This document shows positions 9,963-48,120 of a stretch of 64,000 nt of DNA, one piece after another (within the stretch, counting starts at the first letter, position 1; each line of letters starts with the position of its first letter). Source of the DNA: Bacilli bacterium (GTDB lineage Bacteria; Bacillota_I; Bacilli_A; RFN20; CAG-826); NCBI GenBank assembly GCA_045130875.1, contig JBGUQI010000011.1, positions 73,828 to 137,827 of the forward strand. The letters are read 5' to 3'. The translations under genes were made by a program, and so were the position numbers. The notes below the pieces were generated by a model. The model had not been told where the DNA came from. It saw only the letters and a program-made list of their open reading frames with translations, and searched no databases.

Positions 9963-10028
9963 ATATTTATTATATAAAAAATGGATTGGAGAATCCCAAC
10001 CCATTTATAAATAAATGCTTAGAAAGAA

Positions 10029-14031: not shown

Positions 14032-16494
14032 TTATTTATATTTCTCAACACAATACCCACTATCTAGCATTGTCTTGAGTAATATCTGAGCATAAGAACG
14101 TATAATGAAATCGTTGGAGTGATTAACATTATTACCCGTTACATCCCTTGATAATTTACCAGTGCCTAAAATCCAGTTAGTAAAGGCCTGAACATCCGCA
14201 ATAGCAATTTGATTAACATAAGAACTGACATTCATAACATCTTCACTCCAAGCAGGAATGTTTCTAATGTTATGAGTCCATGCATCAACAGCTTGTTGAT
14301 TGGATAATTCTGGGGTTTGAATAATCAAATTAGCGCTCGGATTATCATCAAAGAATTTATTTATAAGACTATTAAGCATTTCTTTATATTCGTCTTCTGA
14401 TGTCATCGTGTCGTTGCCACCAATACGAAGAATCATTAAATCAATATGTTTACCTTTAATTCTTTCGTTGTAAGCATTTAAACATTCAGAAATCTTCCAA
14501 CCACCAACGGCTTGATTCTCAATATTGATTTGGCTGGTATATTTCTTTTCTAAATATAATTTAGAAAGATTATAAGCATCTGGCATATGGGGATTAATTA
14601 AGCCACCTTGTTCGGTTCCGCTAGCGTTGCAACCAGTAGCGACGGAATCACCATAAACCATCCAATCAATGTTTTCGCCATTACGAAGTTTAGATAATAC
14701 TCTTTCAAGTTTATTTTGTTGGGCTTCCGGAACCTTTCCCGTATAGACATCATCATGACGATAAGTGACTGCGATTTGTTTATCAGTAAATGTGGCAAAT
14801 TCACCATATTTCAAATACTTTTGATGATCAAATGGGATATCGGTCTTGCTCATATCCGCTTCAACGGCAACACCATAACTCTTATCTTGAATCTCATCTT
14901 CATCAATAAAATATTCATCGTATTCCCAATAAGGAATCTCGCTTCCTTTTAATCGTTTAATAATACGACCATTAACAACATAATCTCTGCCTTCAACATA
15001 GGTTTTCTGCAAACGATAATCGGTGATGGATTTAATTTCGGTCGGCTCAAACATCAATGTGCTTTCACCTTCTTCGCCCACAAACATACAAGTTTCGTTG
15101 TATATTTCACGAGTGAACCAATATGGTTTAAGATAAGCATCTAATAAGTTATCATCAAAATCATTAAATGATTTCCATTCTTCTTGATCGGCTGGCAGTA
15201 ATACTTTGCGCACTATCACAGGAATGCCGTTGTTGATATCAAATAATGGAGTTGATTGACGATATGTTTTGTCATCAATCTGACTTGCAATGTTGACATA
15301 GACAATTTTGGCATTGCTAGGAACAGTAACTTCAAATCTTCCGTTGACTTTATCAATTTTTGTTGAAACATCAACTTGTTCAAAATCGGAATTGATAACG
15401 GAACCATTAATAGCGTCATTTGAATATTCCAAAATATCGTTCTTGGCATAAATCTCAATAAATGAGTTGGAAACATTCTCAGGAATCATAAACTTTCCTT
15501 TAATAATTCCTTCTTCCAAAACGATGTCACGAAGATATGGTAAAGTTGTTTTGTTTTCAGTCATGGAATCCGCAAATTCATACACTTCATTGATTTTCCA
15601 AGCGGTATCATGACCATGTGTGTGTTCTGCGATAAATACGAGGTCAGCTCCTAAAATTGTGGCTGATTTGCTAGTGATATTTGAAGAAAAGTGTGGATCA
15701 TGATCGGAATTTGCATACATGATTTTAGCCTTATAGTATTTAAAATAAAGGCTTGGGTCATATAAGGAATACATCGCATCAGGCCTGTCGCTAGAAGCAA
15801 AGGCAGAACGAGAATCATATAAGAAACCTGAACCATAAATAGGCACACCGAAGGAATATCTATCGTCGCATCCTAAAGCAATAGAGCAAATCACAGAACC
15901 CCATGAAATACCCACAATCCCTATTTTGGTGTTATCGACATGTTCGTCATTCGCCAATATTGTGGTAGCTCTTATAACTGTGGAAACAGCTTGGAACATC
16001 CATTGATCTTGAATGTCAATTCTTGGATTCATCATATAATCGGTATAAGGTCCACCTAAACCATCTCTAGAGTTGTCTGGGCGTTTACCTTCGGTATCCA
16101 TCGCAATAGCGACATATCCTCTTTCGTTCCATATTCTTACCCATTCGGCAAAAGCGGTTCCTCCACCACCATGAACCAAAACAACGGCCGGGTGTTTTCC
16201 TTCCGTAGATGGATAACCAATATAGGCAAAAACTTTAGTGGGTTCGTTTTTATAAGTCGCACCATCGTATTCAATAGCTTTTACGCCTTCTTCATCATAT
16301 GATGCATTAAAGGAGTAGGTGACTTCCGCTTTAGTTTCTTCCACTAATTTCGGTCTAACTTTGTCACTATTATCAACTATTTCAATATAGTCATTAACAT
16401 CCACGTCTGGCTCCTCCTTCTTTTGGGTCGGTTTACATCCAGGAAGAAGCAAACAAAAGAATGTAGTTAATATTAAATATTTAAGTTTTTTCAT
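14032..16494 (-). CDS. Bifunctional carbohydrate esterase lipoprotein: alpha/beta-hydrolase + beta-sandwich + SGNH/GDSL hydrolase
   Basis: 820 aa with lipobox LLLPG|CK. The N-terminal half has VVLVHGGGGTAFAEW and nucleophile elbow GISWGS. The C-terminal half has SGNH blocks VYGDSVATG, AVGGW and LRIGGNDT. The halves are paralogous to the separate genes 41374..42651 and 49504..50766. Confidence 0.75.
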   Translation of the reverse strand: MKKLKYLILTTFFCLLLPGCKPTQKKEEPDVDVNDYIEIVDNSDKVRPKLVEETKAEVTYSFNASYDEEGVKAIEYDGATYKNEPTKVFAYIGYPSTEGKHPAVVLVHGGGGTAFAEWVRIWNERGYVAIAMDTEGKRPDNSRDGLGGPYTDYMMNPRIDIQDQWMFQAVSTVIRATTILANDEHVDNTKIGIVGISWGSVICSIALGCDDRYSFGVPIYGSGFLYDSRSAFASSDRPDAMYSLYDPSLYFKYYKAKIMYANSDHDPHFSSNITSKSATILGADLVFIAEHTHGHDTAWKINEVYEFADSMTENKTTLPYLRDIVLEEGIIKGKFMIPENVSNSFIEIYAKNDILEYSNDAINGSVINSDFEQVDVSTKIDKVNGRFEVTVPSNAKIVYVNIASQIDDKTYRQSTPLFDINNGIPVIVRKVLLPADQEEWKSFNDFDDNLLDAYLKPYWFTREIYNETCMFVGEEGESTLMFEPTEIKSITDYRLQKTYVEGRDYVVNGRIIKRLKGSEIPYWEYDEYFIDEDEIQDKSYGVAVEADMSKTDIPFDHQKYLKYGEFATFTDKQIAVTYRHDDVYTGKVPEAQQNKLERVLSKLRNGENIDWMVYGDSVATGCNASGTEQGGLINPHMPDAYNLSKLYLEKKYTSQINIENQAVGGWKISECLNAYNERIKGKHIDLMILRIGGNDTMTSEDEYKEMLNSLINKFFDDNPSANLIIQTPELSNQQAVDAWTHNIRNIPAWSEDVMNVSSYVNQIAIADVQAFTNWILGTGKLSRDVTGNNVNHSNDFIIRSYAQILLKTMLDSGYCVEKYK

Positions 16495-19052
16495 TATTCT
16501 TCCTCCTTAAAATGTGCTTTCAAAATATAGTGTCCACCACCGGAAATGTTTAGTTGGTTTTTATTCATTTCTTCGCCATTCAATTCATAGAGATTGTTAA
16601 TTTCAATTCTCGCTTCTGTGTTTGGTGGTAGATATAAATCTAAAACAATTTCGTTATTAGTTTTTTTGTATTCAAGTTTGATTTCTCCCGCTATAGTTTG
16701 AAGACCTCCTTTTACTTCATTTAACAAACTGGAAAAATAAGGTTTGATAAATATCTTATTGGCGGCAACAGCATCATCAAGAATAGAAATGCCTAAAAGA
16801 TCATTAAATAAGAAAGCATCTACGCTACCAAACATTGGGTGATTAAAGGAATGCATTTTTTGTTGCATGTCTTTTTCCCATCTTTCCCATATCGTAGTAG
16901 CACCATTAGCAATCATAAATCCCCAGCCTGGATATGTTGGATTTACCAATGTTTTAATAGCGGTATCAACATAACCAAACTTTGCTAAAGCATCAAAGGC
17001 ATATACGTAGGTTTGATTACCCAAAATCACATGGTATTCTTTATCAACTATAGATTTATTAAATCTATCAGCCATTTTTGTTTCTTCTTTATCATTCAAA
17101 AGATGCAATCCTAAGCAAATAGCTAAACATGCCTGACTTCCTGAAGAAATGATGTTCTTTTGAGAATCATAATATTTATCAACAATGGCTTTTTTAATAA
17201 GAGAGGCATTATTTTCATATTTCTTGCCGTCATCATCCTTGTTAAGAATGAACGCAATTTCAGAGACGGCCTTTAAATGTAAATAATAGAAGCAGATTGA
17301 AATAAATTCACCAGATGTCATTTTACTAACTGGATCTTCTTGAAAATCAAAAGGTTCGGGAGCGCACCAATCAGCAAATCTAGCATATAAGGTCACTTTT
17401 TCAAAATCGACTTCCGAAGAGAGATAATCAACCCATCGTTTATATCCATCATACAAATCAATTAATAACTTTTTATTTCCGTAGTATTTATAGGCCTGTA
17501 AGCCGCTTGATAAATAACTTAGACATACAGGATCGGCAGGTCTAAAAGCGGTAAGGAAAGGCGCGGTATCCGCGATTCTTCCCAATTTATCTTGGGTATC
17601 TTTAATATCGTAAGAAACTTTGGATAAGAAATTGGATATGTGATAGTTAAGAACATTTTGATGTAATCTAGCAGTTAGGTCATTTAACCATCCAAATCTC
17701 TCGTCTCTCTGTGGACAATCAGTAAAGATGCCGTGCATATTGCTGCCTTCAGTATAAAGAACGTTCTTGTGGAGCTTATTAATCACTTCATTATCACATT
17801 CAAAAAAGCTAATCTGTTTGACACTATTTCTAACAAATATTCCTTCGATTGAAACCAAAGAAGCGTTTCCATCTATTTCAACCTCAGCATATCGGAATCC
17901 GTGATAAGTGAATCTTGGAGTGTATTCTTCCTCGTCATCACCACTAAGGATATAAACATCTCTAGCTAATGCGGTGCGAAGATTTAATTGATTAACCAAA
18001 CCATTCTCTTTTAATTGTTCTCCATATCTGATAATGACTTTGGAGGATTCCTGACCTTTCACACGAACAGAAACAAAACCCGAGAAATTCTGTCCAAAGT
18101 CAAAGACTTTAATGTTTTTAATATTTTTACAAGAAACAGGCTTAAATCTCTCAACCTCATCAATTGGTTCCAATATATTTTTAGTTAATCTACCTTGGGG
18201 TTTTTCCACTAATAAGGAATATAACCAACCCTCAGCCCATCCAATTGGGGTTTTCGGATCACACCAAGAAGACAATTCTCTTTTCATTATCCCGTCAGAG
18301 ATTTCACCATCATAAATACTATCTTCAACAATCCACGCCCCACGCATCCACCAATCAGCGCATGATGTTGTGTAGAAGAAGTCTTCTTCTCCATTTTCAT
18401 AAGTGATATATACTTGGGCACATAACTTTCGACTTCCCAACCAACCATGGCCAAGAATAATGCCTAAAGCGTTCTTCCCTTGTTTCAAACAATCTTCAAA
18501 ACCGTAAACGTCATACAACACGGTTTTGTTGTAATCAGTTATGGGTGGGTTCAAAATTCCTTGAGAGACTTTATGACCATTTACATAAACTTCATGGCAC
18601 CCAAGCCCGCAAATATAGATTCTAGCTTTTTGAACTTTAACACTTTTCTTAATTTCAAAATCTTTTCTAACTAATAATGCGCCACCCACTCTTGTAACTG
18701 GTGCGCCAATGAAATCTGCTATCCATTCTTTGTCATTTAATAATCCAGTTTCGAAAGAATTTATGGCACTTTTGCCGGCATTTGTTTCAATTTGATAGTA
18801 ATATTGGCATCTACTAGACAGCTCTTTTCCTTGATAAATAATTCCGGCAGAAACATCAGAATTAACCAAACCAGAATCCCAAACATCAATTCTATTGGAA
18901 GCAAGATTCTCAGCGGAAGTCGCCACTAAAACACGATAGAAGGTTTGATGGAAATTATCGCCAATATAAGACCATGAGAATGAAGGAGTCTTGTCAGCAA
19001 GACCAATAGGATTAATTTGATAATCAACTTGAACATTAACTATTTTTACCAT
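16494..19052 (-). CDS. Alpha-L-rhamnosidase, GH78 (cytoplasmic, no signal peptide)
   Basis: 852 aa. The start MVKIVNVQVDYQINPIGL is typical of the GH78 N-domain. The six-hairpin catalytic domain has [17 protein letters not shown] and HPMFGSVDAFLF. RBS AAGGAGGG upstream. Confidence 0.9.
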   Translation of the reverse strand: MVKIVNVQVDYQINPIGLADKTPSFSWSYIGDNFHQTFYRVLVATSAENLASNRIDVWDSGLVNSDVSAGIIYQGKELSSRCQYYYQIETNAGKSAINSFETGLLNDKEWIADFIGAPVTRVGGALLVRKDFEIKKSVKVQKARIYICGLGCHEVYVNGHKVSQGILNPPITDYNKTVLYDVYGFEDCLKQGKNALGIILGHGWLGSRKLCAQVYITYENGEEDFFYTTSCADWWMRGAWIVEDSIYDGEISDGIMKRELSSWCDPKTPIGWAEGWLYSLLVEKPQGRLTKNILEPIDEVERFKPVSCKNIKNIKVFDFGQNFSGFVSVRVKGQESSKVIIRYGEQLKENGLVNQLNLRTALARDVYILSGDDEEEYTPRFTYHGFRYAEVEIDGNASLVSIEGIFVRNSVKQISFFECDNEVINKLHKNVLYTEGSNMHGIFTDCPQRDERFGWLNDLTARLHQNVLNYHISNFLSKVSYDIKDTQDKLGRIADTAPFLTAFRPADPVCLSYLSSGLQAYKYYGNKKLLIDLYDGYKRWVDYLSSEVDFEKVTLYARFADWCAPEPFDFQEDPVSKMTSGEFISICFYYLHLKAVSEIAFILNKDDDGKKYENNASLIKKAIVDKYYDSQKNIISSGSQACLAICLGLHLLNDKEETKMADRFNKSIVDKEYHVILGNQTYVYAFDALAKFGYVDTAIKTLVNPTYPGWGFMIANGATTIWERWEKDMQQKMHSFNHPMFGSVDAFLFNDLLGISILDDAVAANKIFIKPYFSSLLNEVKGGLQTIAGEIKLEYKKTNNEIVLDLYLPPNTEARIEINNLYELNGEEMNKNQLNISGGGHYILKAHFKEEE

Positions 19053-21540
19053 GACGAGCCCTCCTTAAAATCAAAACAAGAAAGAAAACACCACCGAGGA
19101 ATAATAACGATGAGGCTATTATTAGAATTATTGGTAAGGTATTGTTAGTTTTTGTTTTAACAAAACCAACATTATCAAAATACAGAGTTCCGCCAGGGGC
19201 ATTATCGTCAGTTGAGGAATACCAAATCTTTATTTTTTCAATAGATGCAATTGTCTTTTTAAATTCATCGTCAACCTTTATAGAATAGGAATGCGCTTCA
19301 TTATTCCTTGCGCTTAAGCAGCATTCAATAATTTGATTTCCACTATAGAACCTAACTTTTACATTATGGGTAGATTTTTCATTATCGTTATTCTCAATAA
19401 AAAGAGAGAAGTTGAACGATTCTAAATTCTTTGTCTTTATTGGTTTTTCAAACTCTTTGCGAATACCTTTTTCCGCCATTCCTTTTCCGGATGTAGCAAC
19501 GCTTTGATATTGAACCATTAAAATATTTGTTGTGTTAAGAGTTGATCCATCATCTTTAATAATTTCGCAACTTATTGCGTTATTATCTTTTAGCCAGCCG
19601 TTTGTGGTTTCGTTTTCAAAATCATCATTTGTGGAATTCTTATAGTCATCCACCAAAACCATTTCTTTATTCTTTTCTAAAATTCGATGCTCTAATTTGT
19701 TGGCATCAAAATTAGGTATCAATTCGGACCAAGAAGTCGGAATGGTATTTTGGGGTAATACTCTAATATATTTCAAATACGGAGTTGTATATTGCAAAGA
19801 TAATGGGGTGTCAATGTATTTCATTACCTCCCACACAGGTTTCTTTTCATATGGTTCTTCTTCGCTATTTGTTTTTCTAAACCAAATACCAAGATTTTCT
19901 CCATCTTCATAACTCGAATCTATATGACGATGAATGACATATGATTTTGCACCATTAAATAAGAACATATAGTAAGAATAGGCGAACGACGCAGCCTGTT
20001 CATTTAAGGCTTGTTGAGAAATGTTTTCTGAAGCATATGTTCCTGTATGAGGGGTACCTGCACCATATTCAGTGATGTAATAGCAACGCTCCTTTCCTTC
20101 AAATCTGTTTTCATCCTTTTTTAGAAAGTTATATAAAACATCAATATTTAGAGGGGTTACTTTCGCGGCAGTCATTTCATCGTGACTGGACGCAACATAG
20201 TTCACATCATTCCAAAATGCTGCTTCACCAATCGCATTTGCACGATATGGATGATAAGCTAGTTGCCAATAATAATCGCCTTCAAGCTTTGAGGCTTTAT
20301 TTAATTCAGTAAGAACATTTCTTGTTGTATAAGAACCATGCCCAACGAATGGACCATATGATTCGGCATCATAATTTAAATATTGAGTAGCGCAGTCCAA
20401 ATTCCAGAAGTGAGAGGTACAGGCCAAAACATTAGCATATTGCCATATACTCTTAATGGAAATGTAGGCAATACGTAAAGCTCTTTCATATTGTCTAATG
20501 TATTCTTCTATAGGAAGATAGCCCATGTTGTTCCATTGGCAAGCACTTTCAATTTCATTACCAACAATAAAATTATCGACATGGCCATATAATCTATCTT
20601 CTCTGGTATATCTATCCGCTAAGAAAGAAGCTGTTGCGGCAAACAAATCTAAAGCTTTTATAGTTGTGGTATTAATACCAGTTAAATTCATTGGGAAATT
20701 ATTTAATTTTGCATAATCAGGATGTAACAATATCGATTCGATACCGGTATTCTTGCCATAAATAAGGAAGGACAATGTCACACTCATGCCAGCGTTTGTC
20801 ATATTAATGATTCTTTCATCTTGAATCTTTAATAGCTTTTGACTGAAATAATAAGATTTTCCATTATGGACATATTCAATAGAATCCTCAGTCTTCATGC
20901 CAAGTATTATTGTGTTAATATCCATACCAACCATGCTATGGCTGATGCCAAGCTTTTCGGCATCATCAGAATTCTTGACTTCCAATCCTTTAATGCTTTG
21001 CATTTCTTGGCGAGGATACGTTAATTTTGAGTCAAATGAGCGAACAAATGTGGCGGGAGCAACAATATCACCACCAGCGAGCATATTATCGATTACAGAG
21101 CCATTTTTCACTAAATAAAAGCGATCGTACGTTTTATCATGGCCGAGTTCTGATTCAATAGCGGAATAACGGTCGATGTTGATAATTCCAGTTTTAGAAA
21201 CAGTAGCTTCAATATATCCTTTTTGATTCGGTGAATAATAGTTTCTATCTACATCATAGCCGTCATCTTGATTGTCATCTCCTTGACCATCGTAATATTT
21301 AATAAAAGATGTCGAAGAATGGTATTGATTAGCACGGAAACGCACCAATCTAACTTCACCATCAATCGCAGGAATGTTAACAGTAATCTTGTCGCCCTTG
21401 CTTTCTAAATAAAAGCCTTCCTCGTTAACGCTTGAATCTTCGGCTTTAACAAAATGGTTTGCCTTTTCCGGTTTAAAAAACACCAATGATAAATTAGTCA
21501 GCGAAATAAATGATAAAAGTAAAATCGCAATCTTTTTCAT
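19036..21540 (-). CDS. Tail-anchored extracellular glycoside hydrolase-like protein (clan GH-A-like TIM barrel + C-terminal beta-sandwich)
   Basis: 834 aa with a signal peptide. The central region has FIVGNEIESACQWNN (acid/base-like NE after a beta-strand) and CYYITEYGAGTP (nucleophile-like TE-Y-G) about 170 aa later. A C-terminal CBM-like domain is followed by a TM helix and RRARHGKNS tail. Family not assignable by eye. Confidence 0.5.
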   Translation of the reverse strand: MKKIAILLLSFISLTNLSLVFFKPEKANHFVKAEDSSVNEEGFYLESKGDKITVNIPAIDGEVRLVRFRANQYHSSTSFIKYYDGQGDDNQDDGYDVDRNYYSPNQKGYIEATVSKTGIINIDRYSAIESELGHDKTYDRFYLVKNGSVIDNMLAGGDIVAPATFVRSFDSKLTYPRQEMQSIKGLEVKNSDDAEKLGISHSMVGMDINTIILGMKTEDSIEYVHNGKSYYFSQKLLKIQDERIINMTNAGMSVTLSFLIYGKNTGIESILLHPDYAKLNNFPMNLTGINTTTIKALDLFAATASFLADRYTREDRLYGHVDNFIVGNEIESACQWNNMGYLPIEEYIRQYERALRIAYISIKSIWQYANVLACTSHFWNLDCATQYLNYDAESYGPFVGHGSYTTRNVLTELNKASKLEGDYYWQLAYHPYRANAIGEAAFWNDVNYVASSHDEMTAAKVTPLNIDVLYNFLKKDENRFEGKERCYYITEYGAGTPHTGTYASENISQQALNEQAASFAYSYYMFLFNGAKSYVIHRHIDSSYEDGENLGIWFRKTNSEEEPYEKKPVWEVMKYIDTPLSLQYTTPYLKYIRVLPQNTIPTSWSELIPNFDANKLEHRILEKNKEMVLVDDYKNSTNDDFENETTNGWLKDNNAISCEIIKDDGSTLNTTNILMVQYQSVATSGKGMAEKGIRKEFEKPIKTKNLESFNFSLFIENNDNEKSTHNVKVRFYSGNQIIECCLSARNNEAHSYSIKVDDEFKKTIASIEKIKIWYSSTDDNAPGGTLYFDNVGFVKTKTNNTLPIILIIASSLLFLGGVFFLVLILRRARHGKNS

Positions 21541-21541
21541 A

Positions 21542-22390
21542 CTATAATTTCATCCCCGAAGCAAAATCTCCATTTATAAAGTACTTGAGTCCAACAATTG
21601 TAGTTACCACAAGTGGTAAACCACTACAGATATATAAAGCATAAGAAATACCTTCGTTGCTGTACTTGTTGGCTAAGTCTGTAGTCATATCTTTTAATAA
21701 AGGCATTAACATTTGTTTGGAAGAATCTTCAATCACAAGTGTTGGCCATAAATAATCGTTGTATTGTGCAGCAAAGATGCCAATGAATTGAATAATAATA
21801 ATGGGAATACACAACGGAAGAGCAATTGTGAAATAAGCTCTTAAAGACGAAGCTCCATCAATTTGAGCGCTTTCAAACAACTCTTTTGGCTGTTGTTGCA
21901 TAAACGTATAGAACAAGAAGAAAGAGCCCACTAAGTTAGAAGCAATACCCGGCAACAAAATTGCCCATCTTGTGTTATATAAGCCAAGCTGTTGAATATT
22001 AAGGAATGATGAAGTTAAAGTTAAAACGCCAGGTACCATCATTAAAATGATGATTGATCTGAATAAGAATGATTTAAACGGGAAATTAAAACGCACAAAA
22101 ACAAAAGCTGATAAAGAGGAAATTAAGATGGCTACAACAGCGACAGCGATACCAATTAATATGCTATTAAGCATATTCTTATTCATAATCATCATGCTGA
22201 ATCGATAGTTTTCAAAATGTAAGGATGTAGGTAACACCCAAATTCCTCTATCAAAATCAACCGCAGATTTCAGGGAGAGAATGATGGTTATAACTAAGGG
22301 AAATAATGTACAAGCAGAGAACAAAATCACCGCAAAAGAAATCGGTATCTGTTTACCATCAAATTTGCGTTTATTTCTTTTGATTGTCAT
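21542..22390 (-). CDS. Carbohydrate ABC transporter permease (MalG-type)
   Basis: 282 aa, 6 TM segments, EAA loop ESAQIDGASSLRAYFTIALP. Confidence 0.85.
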   Translation of the reverse strand: MTIKRNKRKFDGKQIPISFAVILFSACTLFPLVITIILSLKSAVDFDRGIWVLPTSLHFENYRFSMMIMNKNMLNSILIGIAVAVVAILISSLSAFVFVRFNFPFKSFLFRSIIILMMVPGVLTLTSSFLNIQQLGLYNTRWAILLPGIASNLVGSFFLFYTFMQQQPKELFESAQIDGASSLRAYFTIALPLCIPIIIIQFIGIFAAQYNDYLWPTLVIEDSSKQMLMPLLKDMTTDLANKYSNEGISYALYICSGLPLVVTTIVGLKYFINGDFASGMKL

Positions 22391-24333
22391 AACGCCATAC
22401 CCTCCTTTCTTCTAGTCCTAAATAAGAAGAACGAGACCCCAAATATCGCTATGAATAGCAAAACACCCATCGCACCAGCGACACCAGGATCATGGAATTT
22501 GTTTATATAATAGAAAAGTTCTAATGAAGGGGTATAGGTTGCTCCACCAGGTCCACCTTCTGTAGTCAGATACACTCTATTGAATTCTTGAATAGAAGAT
22601 ATGAATGCCACTACAAACAAAAATTTAAATTGGGGCATTAACATCGGTATATCAATGGCAAAGATTTTTCTTATTCCGGTATATCCTTCTAGTTTCCCGG
22701 CTTCATAATAGGAACGTGGAATAGATGTTAAACCACCATAAAGAATTAAATAGGACCCAACCCATGGGAAGCCAATCATAATGATGGAACCCAACGCTGT
22801 ATCTGGGGATCCTAAAAAGTCGTGTTTTGCAAGGCTTTCCACCCCTATTGCACCAAAAAATGAATTTAACAAACCGTCAGTGCCATAAATGCCAAACCTC
22901 CAGATAAGCATCGATGCAACACCAGGAATAATACCGACGATATACATCAAAACCTTAGAGACATATTGGAATTTCTTGCTTACCAACGAAACGATTAATT
23001 CAGCGACAATAAGTGGTACCACTAAGGCTTTAAACAAATCAGTAACTAAGAAAATTAGCATGTTCTTTACACCAGACCAAAAATACGGATCTTGGAACAC
23101 GGCTTTAAAATTATCGAAAAGTGTCCAATCAACAGGCACACCATTCTCATAGACACGAAAAGCCAAAGAAAAGCCCCAAACAACCGGGATATAAATAAAT
23201 ACAATTAAAAAGGCAAACATTGGAGCGAGCATTGCATAGCACTTCCAATTTTTCACAACTTTGCGAAGTGTATCTTTGGCCTTTTCGGAACCCTGACTGC
23301 TAAATGAAAGAATAAGGACGATAGTTAGAAAGAAAGCTGAGGCAATCAATAATCCAATGGCAACTGGAAATACAATTGAACAAACCGCAACTTTTACGCC
23401 TTTATTAAAGTCAATAACAAAGTTCTTCCCTGCTTTACTTGTAAAAACAGTCCCTGAAAGTGAAATTGTTAAGGTCTTTGCTTGAGCGACAGCACTTATT
23501 CTAAAATTGCCTTTTTCTTTAATGAGATATAATTTACCATCGTTTGTTAAAGCGACGACATGCTCACCATTAGAGGCAACTTTAAGAGAAGCGCTACCAG
23601 TTTTTAATTTATAGTCTTCTTTAAATTCTTGATTATAAATGGTTAATAAACCATTTTCAGATCCTACTACAAAACGATTATTACCATCTAAACAAAAACT
23701 AGAAATGGTTAGTGGGTGAGAGAATTCAAGTGTTGATTCAAGTTTTGAAACATTTTTGTCCAAACGATAAACATCACCACTATAATTTGCATAGTAACAG
23801 TCGCCCTCATTGTTAATAGAAATGTCTATCGGATTAGTTTCTAACATTAAATAGGAATAGTTCGAATCATCTAAAGAGGAAGAATATTCATATTGGAAAA
23901 TATAATTTCTAGTGGCATTAATTTTAGAACATACTAAGAGTTTGTTTGAATTTATAGCAAAGGCATTAACAACATTAGGGGCAATAAAATCAAATACTTT
24001 TTCACTGCCATGATAAACGATTAATTCCTTGTTTTGCAAAGCCACACCAACATAGTTGTTGTTAGAATAGATGCCTGAAATAACATTATCGAAAGTTTCT
24101 TCTTTTACTTTATTGTTTTCTAAAGATTTTAGTGTGTTAGATCCTATATCGGAGTAATACAAAACATCTTCTGTAAAACCAGAAAGAGTGACATTCTTAT
24201 CAAGTTCACTGATTTTATAATCGCTTTTTTTATTTTTAATGATTCCGCTTGTTAAAGAGGTTGCCCCAAAAAGAAGTGTCAAAGCACCACCAACAACGAT
24301 TAATATTAACTTCTTTGAGAAACCTTTTTTCAT
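22387..24333 (-). CDS. Carbohydrate ABC transporter permease (MalF-type) fused to an N-terminal ~300-aa extracytoplasmic beta-propeller-like domain
   Basis: 648 aa. TM1 (residues ~9-30) is followed by about 280 aa of repeated blade-like units. Then comes a 6-TM permease core with EAA loop EAGKLEGYTGIRKIFAIDIP. The stop TGA overlaps the next ATG (ATGA). Confidence 0.8.
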   Translation of the reverse strand: MKKGFSKKLILIVVGGALTLLFGATSLTSGIIKNKKSDYKISELDKNVTLSGFTEDVLYYSDIGSNTLKSLENNKVKEETFDNVISGIYSNNNYVGVALQNKELIVYHGSEKVFDFIAPNVVNAFAINSNKLLVCSKINATRNYIFQYEYSSSLDDSNYSYLMLETNPIDISINNEGDCYYANYSGDVYRLDKNVSKLESTLEFSHPLTISSFCLDGNNRFVVGSENGLLTIYNQEFKEDYKLKTGSASLKVASNGEHVVALTNDGKLYLIKEKGNFRISAVAQAKTLTISLSGTVFTSKAGKNFVIDFNKGVKVAVCSIVFPVAIGLLIASAFFLTIVLILSFSSQGSEKAKDTLRKVVKNWKCYAMLAPMFAFLIVFIYIPVVWGFSLAFRVYENGVPVDWTLFDNFKAVFQDPYFWSGVKNMLIFLVTDLFKALVVPLIVAELIVSLVSKKFQYVSKVLMYIVGIIPGVASMLIWRFGIYGTDGLLNSFFGAIGVESLAKHDFLGSPDTALGSIIMIGFPWVGSYLILYGGLTSIPRSYYEAGKLEGYTGIRKIFAIDIPMLMPQFKFLFVVAFISSIQEFNRVYLTTEGGPGGATYTPSLELFYYINKFHDPGVAGAMGVLLFIAIFGVSFFLFRTRRKEGMAL

Positions 24334-24338
24334 AAATT

Positions 24339-25979
24339 CTAGAACGGGCTAACAGTAACATTGTCGTTATCAAGACAGTTACTACGATAACCTCTCATTT
24401 TTAAATATTTACTCATATTATTGATTAACGAATTTTGCATATCGGTAGCATACTTATCAATCGTGATATTTTGGATGACAAATAACTTTTCGGTAAGACT
24501 TTGGAAATCACGAGTGGATAATGGTTCATCATTAAGTCCTCTAGCAAAAAGCACTGCTGGATTGTCATCAGCAATACCCCTTAAATACATACCGCTTGAT
24601 AAGTTTATAGATTCAGGAATAACCACATCCTTGATGTATGGTTTGCCTTTAATAGCAACACCAAGTTTTTCCATGGCTTTCATCTCAATATCTTGGCCAA
24701 CTTTAGATGCCCAATACATCAAGAAATCCATCACCAATTCAGTTTGCTTTGTGGTCTTGTTAATCACACCATAATAGCCATGAGGGCCACCGATAGAACG
24801 AGTATAATTCACATCCGGTGCACCTTGTGGATAATCTGGATGAGATTCCATAGCTGGAAATTCAAAATATCCAACATCAAACATCGTTTCTGGAGATATT
24901 TCTTTTTTGTTTTTCCACATAACCAGCAAGCTAGTTTCATCTAATGTAATTGCGGCCTTGCCGTTCCAGAAATATGGAGATTTATCACTGGTAAAAGCAT
25001 CGCCACAATATCTAGGAAAAACATCTCTAAAATTAGCGAGCATGTTTTTAAACTTCTCAGTATTAGGACCATAATTAGATTTCATAATGCCTTGAAGAAG
25101 TCTTAATTCATTCTTTGTATATCTTTGAGCATTGTCGTTAAACCACGCTAAATCGTTTCTTTCTTCTTCACTAAGTGAAGAATCATAATCTGATGGATAT
25201 GGCTTATATTCCCAATCAGCATCAAAGAATTCATCGTAATTCCAATCACCGGGTTGGGTGTGAACGTCATTAGAAACACTTCTAAAATATTGATCGACAT
25301 AAACTCTAAATAACCAACTCATCTGTCCAGACCAGAAAGAAGACGAAGAACCATCAATAGCTAAAGGAATGACATCACCGGATGGATACGTAGCTTCAAT
25401 TTGTGATAATGCATTTTTGAAATCACTCCAAGTAACAATGGTCGATGCATCAATGCCCGCCTGTTGGAAGATTTGCTTATTATAAAATAAAGAGACTTGA
25501 GTAGATTTGAAGTTAAGTGAATAGATTTCTCCGTGAGAACCATTAGCGGTTAAAGCAATGGGTTCAAACCCGTCTCTCCATGGTGCATTATCAGCATATG
25601 GATTTTTCTTGCTTAAATATTGAGAAATATCCACAAACTTATTACTTCCAAAGTATTGAGATGCTAAATTATTGCGCACAATATCCGCTGTAATTGTGGT
25701 CATATCATTATTAGAAAGCATACTATTGAGCCATTCAGAATAAGATCCTGATGAACCACTGGGATCAATAGATACATTTACACGAGGGTTGATTTTGCGA
25801 TATTCACTAACCACTGCTTCCAAAACTTCTTTTTCTTCAGTGGACATTGGAATAGCAATGGTTATTGACCCTTTCTTTTGTTCGCCTTGTTCGGATTCAG
25901 ATGTTTTTTTGCCATTTCCACAACCCACTAAAAGAAGTGATGTCATTAAAAACAGGCCAAATTTACTTAGTTTTTTCAT
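24339..25979 (-). CDS. Extracellular sugar-binding lipoprotein (ABC SBP, family 1, enlarged)
   Basis: 546 aa with lipobox LLLVG|CGNG. Its position directly upstream of the permease pair and its size and composition fit oligosaccharide-binding SBPs. Confidence 0.8.
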   Translation of the reverse strand: MKKLSKFGLFLMTSLLLVGCGNGKKTSESEQGEQKKGSITIAIPMSTEEKEVLEAVVSEYRKINPRVNVSIDPSGSSGSYSEWLNSMLSNNDMTTITADIVRNNLASQYFGSNKFVDISQYLSKKNPYADNAPWRDGFEPIALTANGSHGEIYSLNFKSTQVSLFYNKQIFQQAGIDASTIVTWSDFKNALSQIEATYPSGDVIPLAIDGSSSSFWSGQMSWLFRVYVDQYFRSVSNDVHTQPGDWNYDEFFDADWEYKPYPSDYDSSLSEEERNDLAWFNDNAQRYTKNELRLLQGIMKSNYGPNTEKFKNMLANFRDVFPRYCGDAFTSDKSPYFWNGKAAITLDETSLLVMWKNKKEISPETMFDVGYFEFPAMESHPDYPQGAPDVNYTRSIGGPHGYYGVINKTTKQTELVMDFLMYWASKVGQDIEMKAMEKLGVAIKGKPYIKDVVIPESINLSSGMYLRGIADDNPAVLFARGLNDEPLSTRDFQSLTEKLFVIQNITIDKYATDMQNSLINNMSKYLKMRGYRSNCLDNDNVTVSPF

Positions 25980-28900
25980 GTTTTTTCCTCCTCGTGATGA
26001 TAAATATCAAAGCGGCAGTTAAGCAGAATGCCGTGGAGCAACCTAGGACAATATATAAAGGAATGTTTGGATCCGTTGCTTTTGTTGGTTGTTCATCAAT
26101 TACTAATTTATTGATATTTACTGTCAATAATCCGTTATCATATTTCAAAATTAGCGTGGTATTTCCGTCAGGTAATGTATCTAGCCAATCTTGGTAGAAG
26201 GTAATAGTGCCACTATCATATTTGTAATTATCAGCAGTTATATAACCACCCTCTATCTCAATGAGTTTGCCCTTGTTTTCTGTAACGCTAATAGTCAGCG
26301 GTTCTTTGTTGTTTGGATTGTAATCAATTGATAAAACGGTTTGGCCATTAAATGAAGGTTTTAGAGAATTGACAATTTCAATCTCAAATACTGTTTCGCT
26401 ATAGAAATCATCAGCATAATATGAAAGCAATGAGAACTGATATTTTCCTACTGTTAATGTTTGGAGAAAATCTTCATGGATAGTTACTTGGTTTCCGTTT
26501 ATCTCATAATCAGAGACGGTGATGCCGTTTCCTTTCACTTCAAGTTTTTCGTGCGGTGGGACAACAAAACGATATGTTAGCGATTGAGGATTATTAATAT
26601 CAAACGTTTGAATCCCACCTTCAATCTCTGGAGCGGTAGAATCCACAACTTTAATAATGATTGTTTCCGTACCTAGGGCGGTTTGAATCTCAAATTCGTG
26701 TTGTCCGTTATCTAATGTGGAAAGGAATTCTTTTCTGAAAACAATTCGTGAAGAAGTGATGCCATAATCAGAAGAGGTAATTCCGTTACCTATAATTGAA
26801 AGTACTGTGTCATTGTTCTTTAAATAATCAAATACACAATCATTGGGATGGTAAACATCAAATATTGAATTGTTATAATATAAATCGATTGTTTCGTTGT
26901 TTGATAACCTCAAAGGAACATATAGTAATTGATCGGTTTTGATTGCGATTCTATCAAAAGTGTCATCATATCCTTCTCTATAGAGAATTGCATCTGCAGG
27001 AATCATAATTCTCGCAGTGCCTTTCTTATAATCATAAGCAACCTGGAAGCCTGTTAAAGGAAGCATTTGAACATCATTCGCTAAATAGACATTTCTCACC
27101 ACAGATGAGCCAATATAGACATTTAAATCTAATGTGTTCATAGAATTCTTATTAAGAATTAATAAATCGTTTAGTGGTTTAGAACCATTGTCTAATTTGA
27201 TTCTAAACTCGGTGCCTTCTTGATCTTGCCAGAAGTGAGGGGTGAATAAACCATAGGCGAGGCCATTATCAAAATTGCTTCTTGTACACAATGTGGTTTC
27301 TTTAATCATTAATCCATTGATATAAATCTTTGTTGATTCTTCACCGATATCAAATGTAAATGTTTCATATCCTAAATCAGAACGTTTTAAGAACTCATGA
27401 GGTATTTGCTTATCAGGATCGGAATCAACCGCAGGTCTTCCAAAATAAGCGGAATTTAGATAGGTTCTACCCACACCAAAGACACCAAATAGCTCAGAGC
27501 ATCCATATCCAGCATCGTAATACATCTTATAGTCATTATTGGATAATGTAAGCGCAAATGAGGAACCCGCTAATGTTGGAACAGAAATGAAATCAACGAA
27601 GAAAGTAATTGGTTTTGTAACATCTAAGGCATGTTTAACTTTCACACCACCAGCAAAATCAGCGGTTTTGGGCCTTACATAATTGACATTGACCCAACCA
27701 TCATCATCAGAAGAAGTGATAACCGATCCGGTCGGTTCTTCCCACGTCAACATCGGAGTGAATGCGTCTTCATAATTGGTAAGAGATTCCCTAGAAACGA
27801 AAAGTGATAATTCACCATTATCAAACACGACTCTTAAAGGAGCGGCGTGTTGAGGGTCTAATCGATCTAAATATGTGGAACTGATAACCAACTTTTTAGT
27901 TTCCTTGTCAAAGGAATAATCTTGATTGGAAATGTTGTTGCCCATTAATTTATCAAACACACCATTATTGGTGTTAAATGACACTTCATAATTTCCAGAA
28001 ATCGCGACATCATATTTCTTGGAAAGATTATTTAAATAATACGGTTTAGCAGAATTACTAATAGTAACGGAAATATTCACAACACCATTATCATATTTGA
28101 CAACAAAGTTGTGTTCCCCATTAGTAAGGGATAACAAATGTGTTTTATCAAAGACGAGTAAGTCATTTCCATCAGTTCTATTAATCGAATAACTCTCCAC
28201 GATCGCTTTGTTTTCTGTGATAGAAATAAAAGCGCCACCACGAGCATTTATATTAAAAGAAATTGTTTGTTCATCAGCGGTAGTTTTTTCAAATTCTAAG
28301 CTGCTAGCACCAATTAATTCTGGATACTCACCAGCAAAAACTACCAGTGTGATACTGAAAGAAAGGTTGTTGTGAGTTTGACCGTAAAAGGTATAGGTTC
28401 CGACCGTTAAGGAAGCGATATAAGAAGATTTAATGACAATATAATTTCTACTCGTATCATAATACCAATCATTTTGAGTGATAGAATTACCAGTTAACGA
28501 ATTAATTGAGTCGTATTTAATGTTCACGGCATATTCAGCATCAGTTAAAGAATTGGCGTTTATTCTTTGTTCATTAACAAGAATCTCTGCTTGCTCAGAA
28601 GAAATAACATTGATAGTCAACGAGACACTACCAAAGGTAAAGTTTGCGGTTAAATTAATTACTTCTAATGGATTAAATTTAGATAAGAATTGGGACTTAA
28701 TTGTTAATTCGTTATTATTCATCAAATAATCTGAATTAGAAATATCATGACCAGTCACTGAGATAAGTTGATTCTCTCTTAATACAAACTCAAAGGTAAC
28801 ATCATTGCCTAAGTAAGCATCATATTCTTTAACATTATTTATACACACCGGGGGAGTTGAATCTGAAATTTTAATTTCAAAATCAATACCTTCGGTAACA

Positions 28901-29964
28901 TATAAAGAATAAGCTTTAAAGGTATGTGTTCCCACAGATAAAGTGGTTAAGTAACTGCCATTAATAATTATTTTTTCTTCAGAGGAATTGAAAGAATAAT
29001 CCGTTGATTGAATATCATTTCCGACGATTTCACTAAATGAATCACCATTTTGATAAGCATCGATTGTTAATTGATTATCGGTATGTTTATCAAAATCAAA
29101 AGATGAACCAACTAGTTCCATTTCTGCTTTTTCGGCAACGACTAAAGTTGAAGAAGCATAATCACTACCAAAAATAGCATGTAATTCATATACACCTAAA
29201 TTAACACTTTCTTTAATGAATTCTCCACTAATCGTAATTCTATCGTTTCCAAGCACATAATTGTCTGAGGGTATATTGTAATTTGCGGGGCCGGATAAGG
29301 TTAATGATGATACTGTTGCATGGCAATATTTGAAACCAAACGAGACATCTTGCTCACTGTTTTTGATTGTCGTTCTACGGCTATCAGTAAATGAGGCTTT
29401 GCCAACCCTAATTTTAGCCAAGAAATTTGCATTTGTTTCAAGTTGGAAAACAAGCCTTGCTCCAGCGGCATAAGCACTCTTTTTGACTTGAGAAGTAGTA
29501 ATTAAATAACCATTGTAATAATACTTGGTTCCGGTGTCGGTGAAATCAATGTGGAAATGTTGATATCCTGAAGCATTGTCATGTCCAGGATCACCCCAAT
29601 ATCCCATAGTTTGAAAATTAACGCCGCCCCAATATCTCTGCATGATAATCCAGTCTTGGTGGTTGCCATTCGCATCATCCACGATGAAAGTGAATCTCAC
29701 ATCATCATTAATAAATTCAATATAAAAATCGACCGAATCATTTTCGACACCGCCATCATAGGTGAATGAGTCACCATAATTCATATTCAAAGAAACACCA
29801 CCATCGGCAAGAGGAGTGAAGCTTGCACTAGAAGAACCAATGTTGCTAAAACCATTAACATCCCCATCAGCGCGGCTTAAAAAGCAATTTCTTTCAAAAC
29901 CTAAAAGAGAAACCGCTAAAGCGATGGGTATTAATAATAAAGACAAAGTTCTCATGCGTTTCAT
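25963..29964 (-). CDS. Giant tail-anchored surface protein: two lectin-like domains plus ~10 Ig-like ~85-90-aa repeats
   Basis: 1333 aa with a signal peptide. It has an N-terminal and a central ConA/LamG-like domain. The repeats share the pattern G(N/H).I...DY......L.I...(Y/F)L..L..G.(H/Y).F. The C-terminus is a TM helix plus RRKKHEKTK. Confidence 0.65.
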   Translation of the reverse strand: MKRMRTLSLLLIPIALAVSLLGFERNCFLSRADGDVNGFSNIGSSSASFTPLADGGVSLNMNYGDSFTYDGGVENDSVDFYIEFINDDVRFTFIVDDANGNHQDWIIMQRYWGGVNFQTMGYWGDPGHDNASGYQHFHIDFTDTGTKYYYNGYLITTSQVKKSAYAAGARLVFQLETNANFLAKIRVGKASFTDSRRTTIKNSEQDVSFGFKYCHATVSSLTLSGPANYNIPSDNYVLGNDRITISGEFIKESVNLGVYELHAIFGSDYASSTLVVAEKAEMELVGSSFDFDKHTDNQLTIDAYQNGDSFSEIVGNDIQSTDYSFNSSEEKIIINGSYLTTLSVGTHTFKAYSLYVTEGIDFEIKISDSTPPVCINNVKEYDAYLGNDVTFEFVLRENQLISVTGHDISNSDYLMNNNELTIKSQFLSKFNPLEVINLTANFTFGSVSLTINVISSEQAEILVNEQRINANSLTDAEYAVNIKYDSINSLTGNSITQNDWYYDTSRNYIVIKSSYIASLTVGTYTFYGQTHNNLSFSITLVVFAGEYPELIGASSLEFEKTTADEQTISFNINARGGAFISITENKAIVESYSINRTDGNDLLVFDKTHLLSLTNGEHNFVVKYDNGVVNISVTISNSAKPYYLNNLSKKYDVAISGNYEVSFNTNNGVFDKLMGNNISNQDYSFDKETKKLVISSTYLDRLDPQHAAPLRVVFDNGELSLFVSRESLTNYEDAFTPMLTWEEPTGSVITSSDDDGWVNVNYVRPKTADFAGGVKVKHALDVTKPITFFVDFISVPTLAGSSFALTLSNNDYKMYYDAGYGCSELFGVFGVGRTYLNSAYFGRPAVDSDPDKQIPHEFLKRSDLGYETFTFDIGEESTKIYINGLMIKETTLCTRSNFDNGLAYGLFTPHFWQDQEGTEFRIKLDNGSKPLNDLLILNKNSMNTLDLNVYIGSSVVRNVYLANDVQMLPLTGFQVAYDYKKGTARIMIPADAILYREGYDDTFDRIAIKTDQLLYVPLRLSNNETIDLYYNNSIFDVYHPNDCVFDYLKNNDTVLSIIGNGITSSDYGITSSRIVFRKEFLSTLDNGQHEFEIQTALGTETIIIKVVDSTAPEIEGGIQTFDINNPQSLTYRFVVPPHEKLEVKGNGITVSDYEINGNQVTIHEDFLQTLTVGKYQFSLLSYYADDFYSETVFEIEIVNSLKPSFNGQTVLSIDYNPNNKEPLTISVTENKGKLIEIEGGYITADNYKYDSGTITFYQDWLDTLPDGNTTLILKYDNGLLTVNINKLVIDEQPTKATDPNIPLYIVLGCSTAFCLTAALIFIITRRKKHEKTK
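26101..29382 (-). repeat. Diverged coding repeats (Ig-like ~85-90-aa modules), approximate span
   Basis: Examples: IVGNDIQSTDYSFNSSEEKIIINGSYLTTLSVGTHTFKA; VTGHDISNSDYLMNNNELTIKSQFLSKF; LMGNNISNQDYSFDKETKKLVISSTYLDRL; IIGNGITSSDYGITSSRIVFRKEFLSTLDNGQHEF; VKGNGITVSDYEINGNQVTIHEDFLQTLTVGKYQF. The repeats are at protein level; the DNA copies are diverged. Confidence 0.6.
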
Positions 29965-47168: not shown

Positions 47169-47169
47169 A

Positions 47170-48117: not shown

Positions 48118-48120
48118 TTT

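Follow-up and report, generated by a model that had tools for sequence, protein, structure and literature searches.

To our knowledge, the external domains documented on the membrane subunits of type I importers are of two kinds, the P2 loop of MalF and fused substrate-binding domains. The E. coli maltose importer MalFGK2-MalE (2R6G, 3FH6) pairs MalF, a CUT1 type I TMD, with a MalG-type partner and an SBP; MalF has 8 TM helices, of which two precede a 6-TM BPD_transp_1 core with an EAA loop, and carries a large extracytoplasmic domain, P2 (~180 aa, not a propeller), between TM3 and TM4. P2 contacts MalE in the 2R6G complex. In OpuA and GlnPQ, the extracytoplasmic domain that is covalently fused to a type I importer permease subunit is itself the SBP. 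Propellers related in repeat type and fold to the one described here are known from YxaL (7EVF, 7EQ5, 7DXN; a PQQ_3 protein), 3HXJ, BamB, and the designed Cake propellers, which are non-catalytic, extracytoplasmic interaction modules that are soluble or lipid-anchored, stand alone, and mostly have 8 blades. PknD (1RWI) displays a 6-bladed, NHL-type propeller outside the cytoplasmic membrane, on one TM helix that leads to a Ser/Thr kinase.

The locus described here lies in a window of 64,000 nt (the whole stretch of DNA that was analysed) and encodes a permease that shares with MalF each of the elements listed above, including the 8 TM helices, the MalG-type partner, and the SBP, but differs in the nature and position of its external domain. 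In particular, a ~265-aa 7-bladed propeller is inserted between TM1 and TM2, while the loop equivalent to P2 comprises only ~36 aa. The propeller and P2 are not homologous, and contact with the SBP, shown for P2, we only infer for the propeller. In contrast to OpuA and GlnPQ, the SBP is a separate lipoprotein and the propeller does not have an SBP fold; in contrast to YxaL, BamB, and Cake, the propeller has 7 blades and is flanked on both sides by TM helices of a transporter subunit; and unlike PknD, the protein is a transporter subunit. In full-text literature searches, no paper on a MalF-type permease with a propeller came up. The gene and its parts are as follows (window positions, strand, description, basis):

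22387..24333, minus strand: propeller-bearing MalF/UgpA-type (CUT1) ABC permease, 648 aa (ORF; Pfam, NCBIfam, and PDB matches)
24232..24315, minus strand: TM helix a, residues 7-34 (hydropathy peak 9-27; AF2 helix 7-34)
23410..24201, minus strand: extracytoplasmic 7-bladed PQQ-like beta-propeller, residues ~45-308 (AF2, Foldseek, profile matches)
23305..23409, minus strand: TM helix b, residues 309-343 (hydropathy 311-348, peak 324-342; AF2 helix 309-343)
23248..23304, minus strand: K/R-rich cytoplasmic linker, residues 344-362 (6 K/R within 340-370)
22390..23247, minus strand: canonical 6-TM type I importer core, residues 363-648 (hydropathy, Pfam, NCBIfam, PDB)
22636..22713, minus strand: EAA loop, residues 541-566, 'YYEAGKLEGYTGIRKIFAIDIPMLMP', the ATPase coupling site (translation)

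The protein is the subunit that takes the MalF position in a CUT1-type oligosaccharide ABC importer. Residues 440-636 match Pfam BPD_transp_1 with 31.3 bits, above the gathering score of 26.4, and hydropathy shows six core peaks (~365-387, 424-451, 459-482, 512-535, 557-580, and 615-640). The sequence 'EAGKLEGYTGIRKIFAIDIPML', at about residues 541-566 between core TM4 and TM5, carries, at 544-565, the EAA-x3-G-x9-I-x-LP coupling motif, and E544, A545, G550, D561, and P563 of this loop are invariant in the family alignment. NCBIfam UgpA matches residues 361-638 (E 4e-14) and NCBIfam MalF matches residues 406-631 (E 5e-10), both far under their equivalog cut-offs, indicating that the permease is an orthologue of neither; the MalF alignment starts only at residue 406, which corresponds to profile position 267. 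Sequence matches of the core in the PDB are AlgM1, MalF (residues 407-634, E 6e-9 to 7e-9), and SugA. The closest solved core is that of AlgM1 (4tqu_M; residues 358-592, E 3e-13), from the Sphingomonas AlgM1M2SS-AlgQ2 complex (4TQU), likewise a system for oligosaccharide or polysaccharide import; AlgM1, at 301 aa, differs in having no N-terminal TM-propeller-TM module. The P2-equivalent loop, between core TM1 and TM2, is residues 388-423, in line with the view of the initial annotation that the propeller is a different solution from P2. In public annotations, propeller permeases appear as 'hypothetical protein' or 'ABC-type sugar transport system permease subunit'.

The ectodomain is predicted with confidence to be a beta-propeller. 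The initial annotation, made from the sequence, had read the gene as a MalF-type permease fused to an extracytoplasmic domain of 6-7 blade-like units and had proposed structure prediction as a check; all six of the peptides that it quoted are present in the 648-aa translation, and the AF2 model, built from a 7-sequence alignment, bears the reading out, with pLDDT 86-93 across residues ~45-308; the corresponding nt 23410-24201 agree with the span of 23404-24231 given in that annotation. Specifically, residues 50-308 form 27 strands, arranged as six full four-stranded blades plus three strands of a seventh, and Foldseek agrees with seven blades, giving TM-scores of 0.6-0.69 (target-length normalised) against 7-bladed propellers such as 7bie, 3ow8, 5yzv, and 2z2n. 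The six core helices of the model agree with hydropathy at low pLDDT (<50 in the TM core), so that the placement of the propeller relative to the pore is not readable from the model. Sequence comparison points the same way as the fold. The single permease sequence matches the designed propellers Cake9/10 (E~1e-10), and a profile of 14 ectodomain sequences matches Cake10 (E 4e-51), YxaL (5e-23), 3hxj (2e-17), PknD (1rwi; 6e-9), and BamB (~1e-6) in the PDB. The single sequence matches no Pfam PQQ model (such as PQQ_2/PQQ_3); its only Pfam propeller matches, Beta-prop_ACSF4 (17.8 bits, cut-off 133) and Beta-prop_Vps41, are far below cut-off, as is NCBIfam BamB (18.7 bits, cut-off 285). Judged from sequence, kinship to PQQ-like repeats is at the superfamily level and does not amount to family membership.

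The propeller is part of a module of ~345 N-terminal residues, comprising TM helix a, the propeller, and TM helix b, that precedes the core. The initial annotation had placed a single TM helix ahead of the propeller and the 6-TM core directly behind it, and in this respect it needs correction: TM helix b was missed, and the order is TM-propeller-TM-core, with 8 TM helices in total, the N-terminus inside, and the propeller outside. TM helix b directly follows the last propeller strand, without a linker, runs from outside to inside, and was found in 14/14 family members in a genome scan. It is needed, since otherwise an ectodomain outside and an EAA loop inside would be impossible. Because the EAA loop must be cytoplasmic and four core TMs lie upstream of it, residues 344-362 are inside, and TM helix b thus places the propeller outside. 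The charge distribution fits this topology: the cytoplasmic N-terminus, MKKGFSKK with 4 Lys, and the linker are both K/R-rich, as the positive-inside pattern predicts for a propeller outside. The extracytoplasmic location originally proposed for the ectodomain therefore stands on both the charge distribution and the position of the EAA loop. We regard the identity and architecture of the propeller permease as secure, with little room for doubt.

The fusion is genuine and is conserved within a small set of uncultured, gut-type Clostridia. In a survey of homologues for the same fusion, also proposed at the outset, each of the homologous loci recovered (>20, all of them in uncultured Clostridia) has TM-ectodomain-TM-core in one ORF; 16 were read end to end, and three more permeases were called at 654-665 aa. 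Carriers span different samples, assemblers, and GC contents (35-62%), and in independent assemblies, orthologues with 78-80% identity are fully syntenic. A word-index homologue search with the full protein returned 3 close relatives, and its repetition with the 7-sequence alignment returned the same 3 and did not recover the alignment's own members; the family came from an exhaustive search, which found remote members of 648-667 aa, and from a genome-contig scan, which found 14 loci in GTDB genomes, all with TM-ectodomain-TM-core. Among close matches, the propeller is fused always to this permease subfamily and to nothing else.

Within this architecture the propeller is the rapidly changing part. 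Values of dN are 0.217 for the propeller and 0.057 for the core, i.e. the propeller evolves about 4 times faster, and the low dN against a saturated dS of ~2.3 indicates purifying selection on both. Between loci, identity is 21-35% for the propeller versus 33-61% for the SBP. Across 14 ectodomains, no polar residue is invariant, His, Tyr, Arg, Asp, and Glu included, and the conserved positions are only Gly and hydrophobic or aromatic strand positions; catalysis by the propeller is therefore unlikely. Three loci (L015-L017) have ectodomains with no significant match to the propeller profile; those of L015 and L016, whose permeases are longer (697-802 aa), have no PDB sequence match, and L017 has a different glycan context, with GH38 at the locus. 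Blade-like motifs are visible by eye in the L015-L017 ectodomains.

The permease gene is flanked by the other components of an importer and by genes for glycan-active and surface proteins:

24339..25979, minus strand: cognate lipoprotein SBP, 546 aa (SBP_bac_1; lipobox LLLVGC, Cys20), adjoining the propeller permease
21542..22390, minus strand: MalG/UgpE-type partner permease, 282 aa, 6 TM, its start overlapping the stop of the propeller permease
25963..29964, minus strand: surface protein, 1333 aa, with 5 CBM_X2 repeats, a signal peptide, and a C-terminal TM anchor
19036..21540, minus strand: DUF5722 protein, 834 aa, with a signal peptide and a C-terminal TM anchor
29964..32573, minus strand: GH78 alpha-L-rhamnosidase, 869 aa, without a signal peptide (intracellular)
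16494..19052, minus strand: second GH78 alpha-L-rhamnosidase, 852 aa, without a signal peptide
14032..16494, minus strand: AXE1 + GDSL esterase lipoprotein, 820 aa
32638..33501, plus strand: AraC-family regulator, 287 aa, divergently transcribed
34136..35566, minus strand: MalK-type ATPase, 476 aa (ABC_tran + TOBE_2), candidate energiser

The two intracellular GH78 enzymes suggest that the substrate is a rhamnose-containing oligosaccharide, and the MalK-type ATPase, about 10 kb from the propeller permease and within the window, probably serves this transporter. The SBP is modelled by AF2 with pLDDT 87.5, and its Foldseek matches are CUT1 oligosaccharide SBPs of ~400 aa. In the homologous loci, the propeller permease always lies between a large lipoprotein SBP and a MalG-type partner: a large SBP (520-577 aa) adjoins the long permease in 18/18 loci with upstream DNA, and wherever the flank is available, the three genes occur together as SBP-long permease-MalG. 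Six further SBP homologues (35-44% identity), picked irrespective of their neighbour genes, are all followed directly by a permease of 654-673 aa and a MalG of 280-294 aa, and the three of these permeases that were tested all match the ectodomain profile (E 1e-13 to 1e-22). A divergent AraC-family regulator is also found in L002, L018, L019, and L022.

The initial annotation had suggested that the ectodomain could dock the SBP, tether the neighbouring giant surface protein, or bind substrate, and co-occurrence speaks for the SBP. From this co-occurrence we tentatively favour, at somewhat less than even chances, a role of the propeller as an extracytoplasmic docking platform for the cognate SBP. 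The propeller, non-catalytic, would hold or orient the unusually large SBP above the translocation pore, making the hand-over of rhamnose-containing oligosaccharides more efficient, and the imported oligosaccharides would then be trimmed by the intracellular GH78 rhamnosidases. This would parallel the way in which the P2 loop of MalF caps MalE, and the short P2-equivalent loop of the core makes another SBP-contacting element plausible. Co-occurrence with an SBP is expected for any ABC importer operon and shows only that the two subfamilies travel together. A mirror-tree comparison of propeller and SBP showed no signal in excess of phylogeny (partial r of 0.10 given the core), a comparison of low power because propeller identities are saturated at 20-30%. 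The divergence of the propeller beyond that of the SBP and the unrecognised ectodomains of L015-L017 would suit a role facing the substrate, or one with variable partners, just as well.

A less likely reading, though the best placed of the alternatives, is that the propeller acts as a hub, drawing the membrane-anchored CBM_X2/Ig-repeat protein and the DUF5722 protein together around the permease in a Gram-positive 'utilisome' that couples capture, cleavage, and import. Propellers of the BamB type serve as protein scaffolds, and BamB is among the matches of the ectodomain profile. The candidate partners are predicted to reside in the same membrane: the 1333-, 834-, and 543-aa proteins of the locus and a 1072-aa protein of a neighbouring gene cluster each have a signal peptide, a C-terminal TM helix, and a basic tail (searches of these tails for known sorting domains gave only sub-threshold or non-specific matches). 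Genes for GH78 rhamnosidases, DUF5722, and membrane-anchored CBM_X2/Ig-repeat surface proteins are often found nearby, and the gene order surface protein-SBP-permease-MalG-DUF5722/GH78 recurs. Nearly all of the loci examined encode, upstream of the SBP, a protein that combines a signal peptide with a C-terminal TM anchor; in most loci a membrane-anchored Ig/CBM-repeat surface protein lies there, and some of these upstream proteins share CBM_X2/Ig-like repeat regions with the 1333-aa protein. However, the likeness among upstream proteins lies mostly within repeat domains, and no one surface-protein family is common to all loci. For the 1333-aa protein, clear homologues are confined to the closer loci (L002/3, L005, L006, and L022, with partial ones in L018/L019), so that it cannot be a universal partner. 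The distribution of DUF5722 is likewise patchy: it follows MalG in the window, L002/3, L004-L006, L018, L019, and L022, is present in L007 as a shorter copy (517 aa) upstream of the SBP, and is missing in L008-L014. The fuller form of the hub reading, in which separate faces of the propeller bind the SBP, the CBM_X2/Ig-repeat protein, and the DUF5722 protein in one stable membrane complex, centred on the ABC permease, for capture, cleavage, and import of rhamnose-containing glycans, as a counterpart of the 'utilisome' of Bacteroidetes, we consider unlikely; if it were true, the divergent ectodomains of L015-L017, at the same site, would adapt the chassis to other glycans.

Just as unlikely as that fuller form is direct, lectin-like binding of glycan or oligosaccharide by the propeller, which would concentrate substrate or feed the SBP. 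Many propellers are lectins, the propeller is the fastest-evolving part of the system, and a different ectodomain occurs where the glycan context differs (GH38 in L017), as if specificity tracked substrate. Against this, the blades show no repeated conserved aromatic or acidic sugar-binding motif, the window ectodomain contains no Trp, the family-conserved positions are Gly or structural, and no known lectin propeller is among the top sequence or fold matches. A role apart from transport, such as envelope spacing or anchoring, signal sensing, or service as an exposed, fast-evolving surface target, is more improbable still: sensor propellers do occur outside the membrane on kinases, as the PknD match illustrates, and quick divergence would suit such a role, but the restriction of the propeller to this permease subfamily among close matches, the lack of a signalling domain in the permease, and the cytoplasmic AraC type of the locus regulator argue otherwise.

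Very little speaks for an enzyme, for example a propeller-fold polysaccharide lyase that cuts substrate at the transporter entrance. Rhamnogalacturonan and ulvan lyases with a propeller fold are known, rhamnosidases are abundant at the locus, and the fold resembles 7-bladed virginiamycin B lyase (Foldseek TM 0.65-0.67), but the sequence affinity is to non-catalytic PQQ-like repeats, and this reading was dropped on the lack of conserved polar residues set out above. That an assembly error or frameshift joined two genes is practically ruled out by the identical single-ORF architecture in independent loci and by TM helix b, which makes the topology self-consistent.

With a conserved 7-bladed propeller fixed rigidly by an accessory TM helix on either side, the module would represent a third, independently arisen design for an external domain on a type I importer membrane subunit. 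Gram-positive gut anaerobes have neither an outer membrane nor a SusCD system. If the propeller docks the SBP, as we favour, or assembles surface enzymes, it would show how these organisms couple glycan capture to uptake, and the TM-propeller-TM module, in combination with NMLIFLVTD and IQDFNRVY as motifs of the core, would then be a marker that flags rhamnoside-oligosaccharide utilisation loci in uncultured Clostridia.

The 648-aa product of 22387-24333 (minus strand), which we call the propeller permease, is almost certainly a CUT1 MalF-position permease carrying a TM-propeller-TM module. Residues 440-636 match Pfam BPD_transp_1 above the gathering score, the UgpA and MalF models of NCBIfam cover residues 361-638 and 406-631, respectively, and the nearest solved chains for the core are AlgM1 (E = 3e-13), MalF (6e-9 to 7e-9), and SugA. 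Hydropathy reveals eight TM segments: two accessory helices, helix a (9-27) and helix b (~316-344), and six core helices (365-387, 424-451, 459-482, 512-535, 557-580, and 615-640). The EAA coupling loop (residues 541-566) has to face the cytoplasmic ATPase and is preceded by four core helices; therefore, residues 344-362, which connect helix b to the core and contain six K/R, are cytoplasmic. Because helix b spans the membrane, residues ~35-310 are outside, and because helix a crosses back, the Lys-rich N-terminus is inside. This 8-TM, N-in topology is shared with E. coli MalF; unlike in MalF, the large external domain lies between TM1 and TM2, and the loop corresponding to MalF P2 spans just ~36 aa (residues 388-423). 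The initial annotation described a single TM helix followed by a propeller-like ectodomain and a 6-TM core; helix a and the core were correctly recognized, helix b was overlooked, and with this second helix added the observation is confirmed.

Profile searches and structure prediction both identify the ectodomain as a beta-propeller. The single permease sequence matches the designed propellers Cake8/9/10 (E = 1.6e-10 to 3.3e-9) and gives weak, sub-threshold matches to Pfam and NCBIfam propeller models. A profile of 14 family ectodomains matches Cake10 (4e-51), Cake9 (2e-49), the PQQ-like propellers YxaL (5e-23) and 3hxj (2e-17), the PknD sensor (6e-9), and BamB (~1e-6), which would place the ectodomain in the PQQ-like repeat superfamily, though below every Pfam family cut-off. 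An AF2 model from a 7-sequence family alignment (pLDDT 86-93 across residues ~45-310) shows 27 strands, comprising six four-stranded blades and three strands of a seventh, with the last strand (303-308) passing directly into a helix (309-343). Foldseek places the ectodomain among the 7-bladed propellers 7bie, 3ow8, 5yzv, and 2z2n (TM 0.6-0.69, target-length normalised). In the TM core pLDDT falls below 50; this part of the model is unreliable and does not position the propeller with respect to the pore.

The family appears, from database searches, to be rare and confined to uncultured Clostridia. Independent ENA assemblies carry orthologues (78-80% identity) and keep the entire operon syntenic, which, together with the GTDB loci, effectively excludes an assembly artefact. 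An exhaustive phmmer search of 1.84 billion representative proteins with the ectodomain yielded only 20 matches, including four full-length remote members (648-667 aa, same ectodomain position, 25-27% identity) and a 241-aa fragment. When two core motifs specific to the family, [IM]Q[DE]FNRVY and NM[LI][ILV]FL[VA][TV]D, were used to scan 185,579 GTDB species genomes, they identified at least 14 loci in 12 MAGs, all of uncultured Clostridia (GC 38 to 62%), with two paralogues in each of two genomes. All 14 encode a 650-800-aa permease, and in 13 of them an ectodomain of 290-450 aa is flanked by both accessory helices; the exception, homologous locus L015, has only helix b when read from the first ATG, its start codon being uncertain. 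Eleven of the permeases match the propeller profile (E = 1e-67 to 1e-100), which was built from the same or near-identical sequences. The ectodomains of L015-L017 are recognized neither by the propeller profile nor, in PDB sequence searches, by solved structures; these permeases (697-802 aa) share the family core:
L015, 8768-10945, longer permease
L016, 62-2467, longer permease
L017, 8489-10897, longer permease with a GH38 alpha-mannosidase neighbour
Their ectodomains, of up to ~445 aa, occupy the same site between the accessory helices, which may accept different ectodomains. Public annotation reads "hypothetical protein" or "ABC-type sugar transport system permease subunit", and full-text literature searches found no description of the architecture.

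The operon, with nine genes listed, lies entirely on the minus strand:
29964-32573, GH78 rhamnosidase
25963-29964, 1333-aa CBM_X2 surface protein
24339-25979, 546-aa SBP lipoprotein
22387-24333, propeller permease
21542-22390, 282-aa MalG/UgpE-type permease
19036-21540, 834-aa DUF5722 protein
second GH78 rhamnosidase
AXE1/GDSL esterase lipoprotein
12383-14014, 543-aa surface protein
The SBP gene is separated by 5 nt from the permease start, and the permease stop overlaps the MalG start. An AraC regulator is divergent from the operon, and just past it lies a MalK-type ATPase (34136-35566, minus strand; ABC_tran 63-203, TOBE_2 392-467). At 476 aa versus the usual ~370, this ATPase has a ~50-residue K/E-rich extension ahead of ABC_tran. 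Neither operon GH78 enzyme has a signal peptide; the cargo is therefore likely a rhamnose-containing oligosaccharide trimmed inside the cell.

The triad of SBP, long permease, and MalG is present in every locus with flanking DNA available. In the reciprocal test, an SBP search returned 36 homologues (489-565 aa); six of these (35-44% identity), looked up blind to their neighbours, are all followed immediately by genes for a permease of 654-673 aa and a MalG of 280-294 aa, and the three permeases tested match the propeller profile (1e-13 to 1e-22). The SBP is modelled (pLDDT 87.5) with the usual fold of CUT1 oligosaccharide-binding proteins, enlarged over ~400-aa solved relatives by about 110-140 residues in insertions and C-terminal helices. 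We tentatively favour a role in which the propeller would dock or retain its cognate SBP, because the enlarged SBP and MalG are the only invariant partners, because the permease core lacks a P2-type loop, and because propellers of the PQQ-like class are typically protein-interaction platforms. An unlikely alternative is that the propeller is a scaffold for membrane-anchored surface proteins: nearly all loci encode, upstream of the SBP, some protein that has a signal peptide and is TM-anchored at its C-terminus, and several of these have CBM_X2/Ig-like repeat regions in common, but clear homologues of the 1333-aa protein are limited to the closer loci L002/3, L005, L006, and L022 (partial in L018/L019), and DUF5722 is missing from L008-L014. 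Direct glycan binding is less likely still: the window ectodomain contains no Trp and no polar residue is invariant among the 14 family ectodomains, which argues against a classical repeated lectin site and against catalysis; a catalytic propeller is effectively excluded. The conserved positions are Gly, strand hydrophobics/aromatics, residue 102 (K/R), and residues 143 and 227 (both Asn). A mirror-tree test did not discriminate among SBP docking, surface-protein scaffolding, and glycan binding. The SBP is the best-supported partner, and we offer these functional ideas as hypotheses.

When the window is compared with L002, the propeller has a dN of 0.217 and the core one of 0.057, against a saturated dS of ~2.3; both are therefore under purifying selection, with the propeller changing about four times faster. 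Across loci, identity is 21-35% for the propeller, 33-61% for the SBP, 45-68% for the core, and 44-61% for MalG.

DUF5722 proteins (~800-850 aa, an uncharacterised family) directly follow MalG in many loci, consistently tied to this transporter and GH78; the window member combines a signal peptide with a C-terminal TM anchor:
L004, 3410-5923
L005, 12655-15210
L018, 12593-14995
L019, 12629-15055
L022, 10551-13094
The operon proteins of 1333, 834, and 543 aa and, in a neighbouring cluster, a Big_2 protein of 1072 aa have a signal peptide, a C-terminal TM helix, and a basic tail. Surface proteins of these loci end in a TM helix and K/R tail, most with a G-C-x-S/A motif just ahead of the helix:
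window, 38116-41334 (C-terminus KKGCGGS...KKRKQK), 25963-29964, 19036-21540, 12383-14014
L005, 3878-8062; L006, 3705-7859; L008, 206-2467; L009, 5721-7940
L010, 6503-9943; L013, 5192-7258; L019, 4147-6552 and 6553-8004; L020, 1378-2640
L021, 3848-5953; L022, 1112-6004; L023, 3787-5970
NCBIfam gives only sub-threshold or non-specific matches to these tails (MYXO-CTERM, Rumino_NPXTG, Loki-CTERM, LPXTG_anchor); the Cys-containing tail could be an undescribed signal by which uncultured Clostridia sort or anchor such proteins. Y_phosphatase3 (tyrosine-phosphatase-like) genes occur in the window (8910-10004 and 61044-62222, minus strand) and directly after a GH78 gene in two related loci (L021, 13124-13647; L023, 13162-13677).

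A second, canonical CUT1 system in a separate glycan locus (46275-49491, minus strand; permeases of 297 and 315 aa, SBP of 456 aa) has, on the same strand downstream of its permease genes, genes for two Pfam-less proteins (600-611 aa), a 425-aa hydrolase, the Big_2 protein, and a third GH78. Within this genome, its permeases contrast with the 648-aa permease. The window also encodes:
52277-54454, plus strand, lacto-N-biose phosphorylase
55648-57375, plus strand, GH127 beta-L-arabinofuranosidase-like protein
11281-12222, minus strand, SASA-type acetylesterase
The gene content marks the organism as a specialist forager of host or plant glycans.
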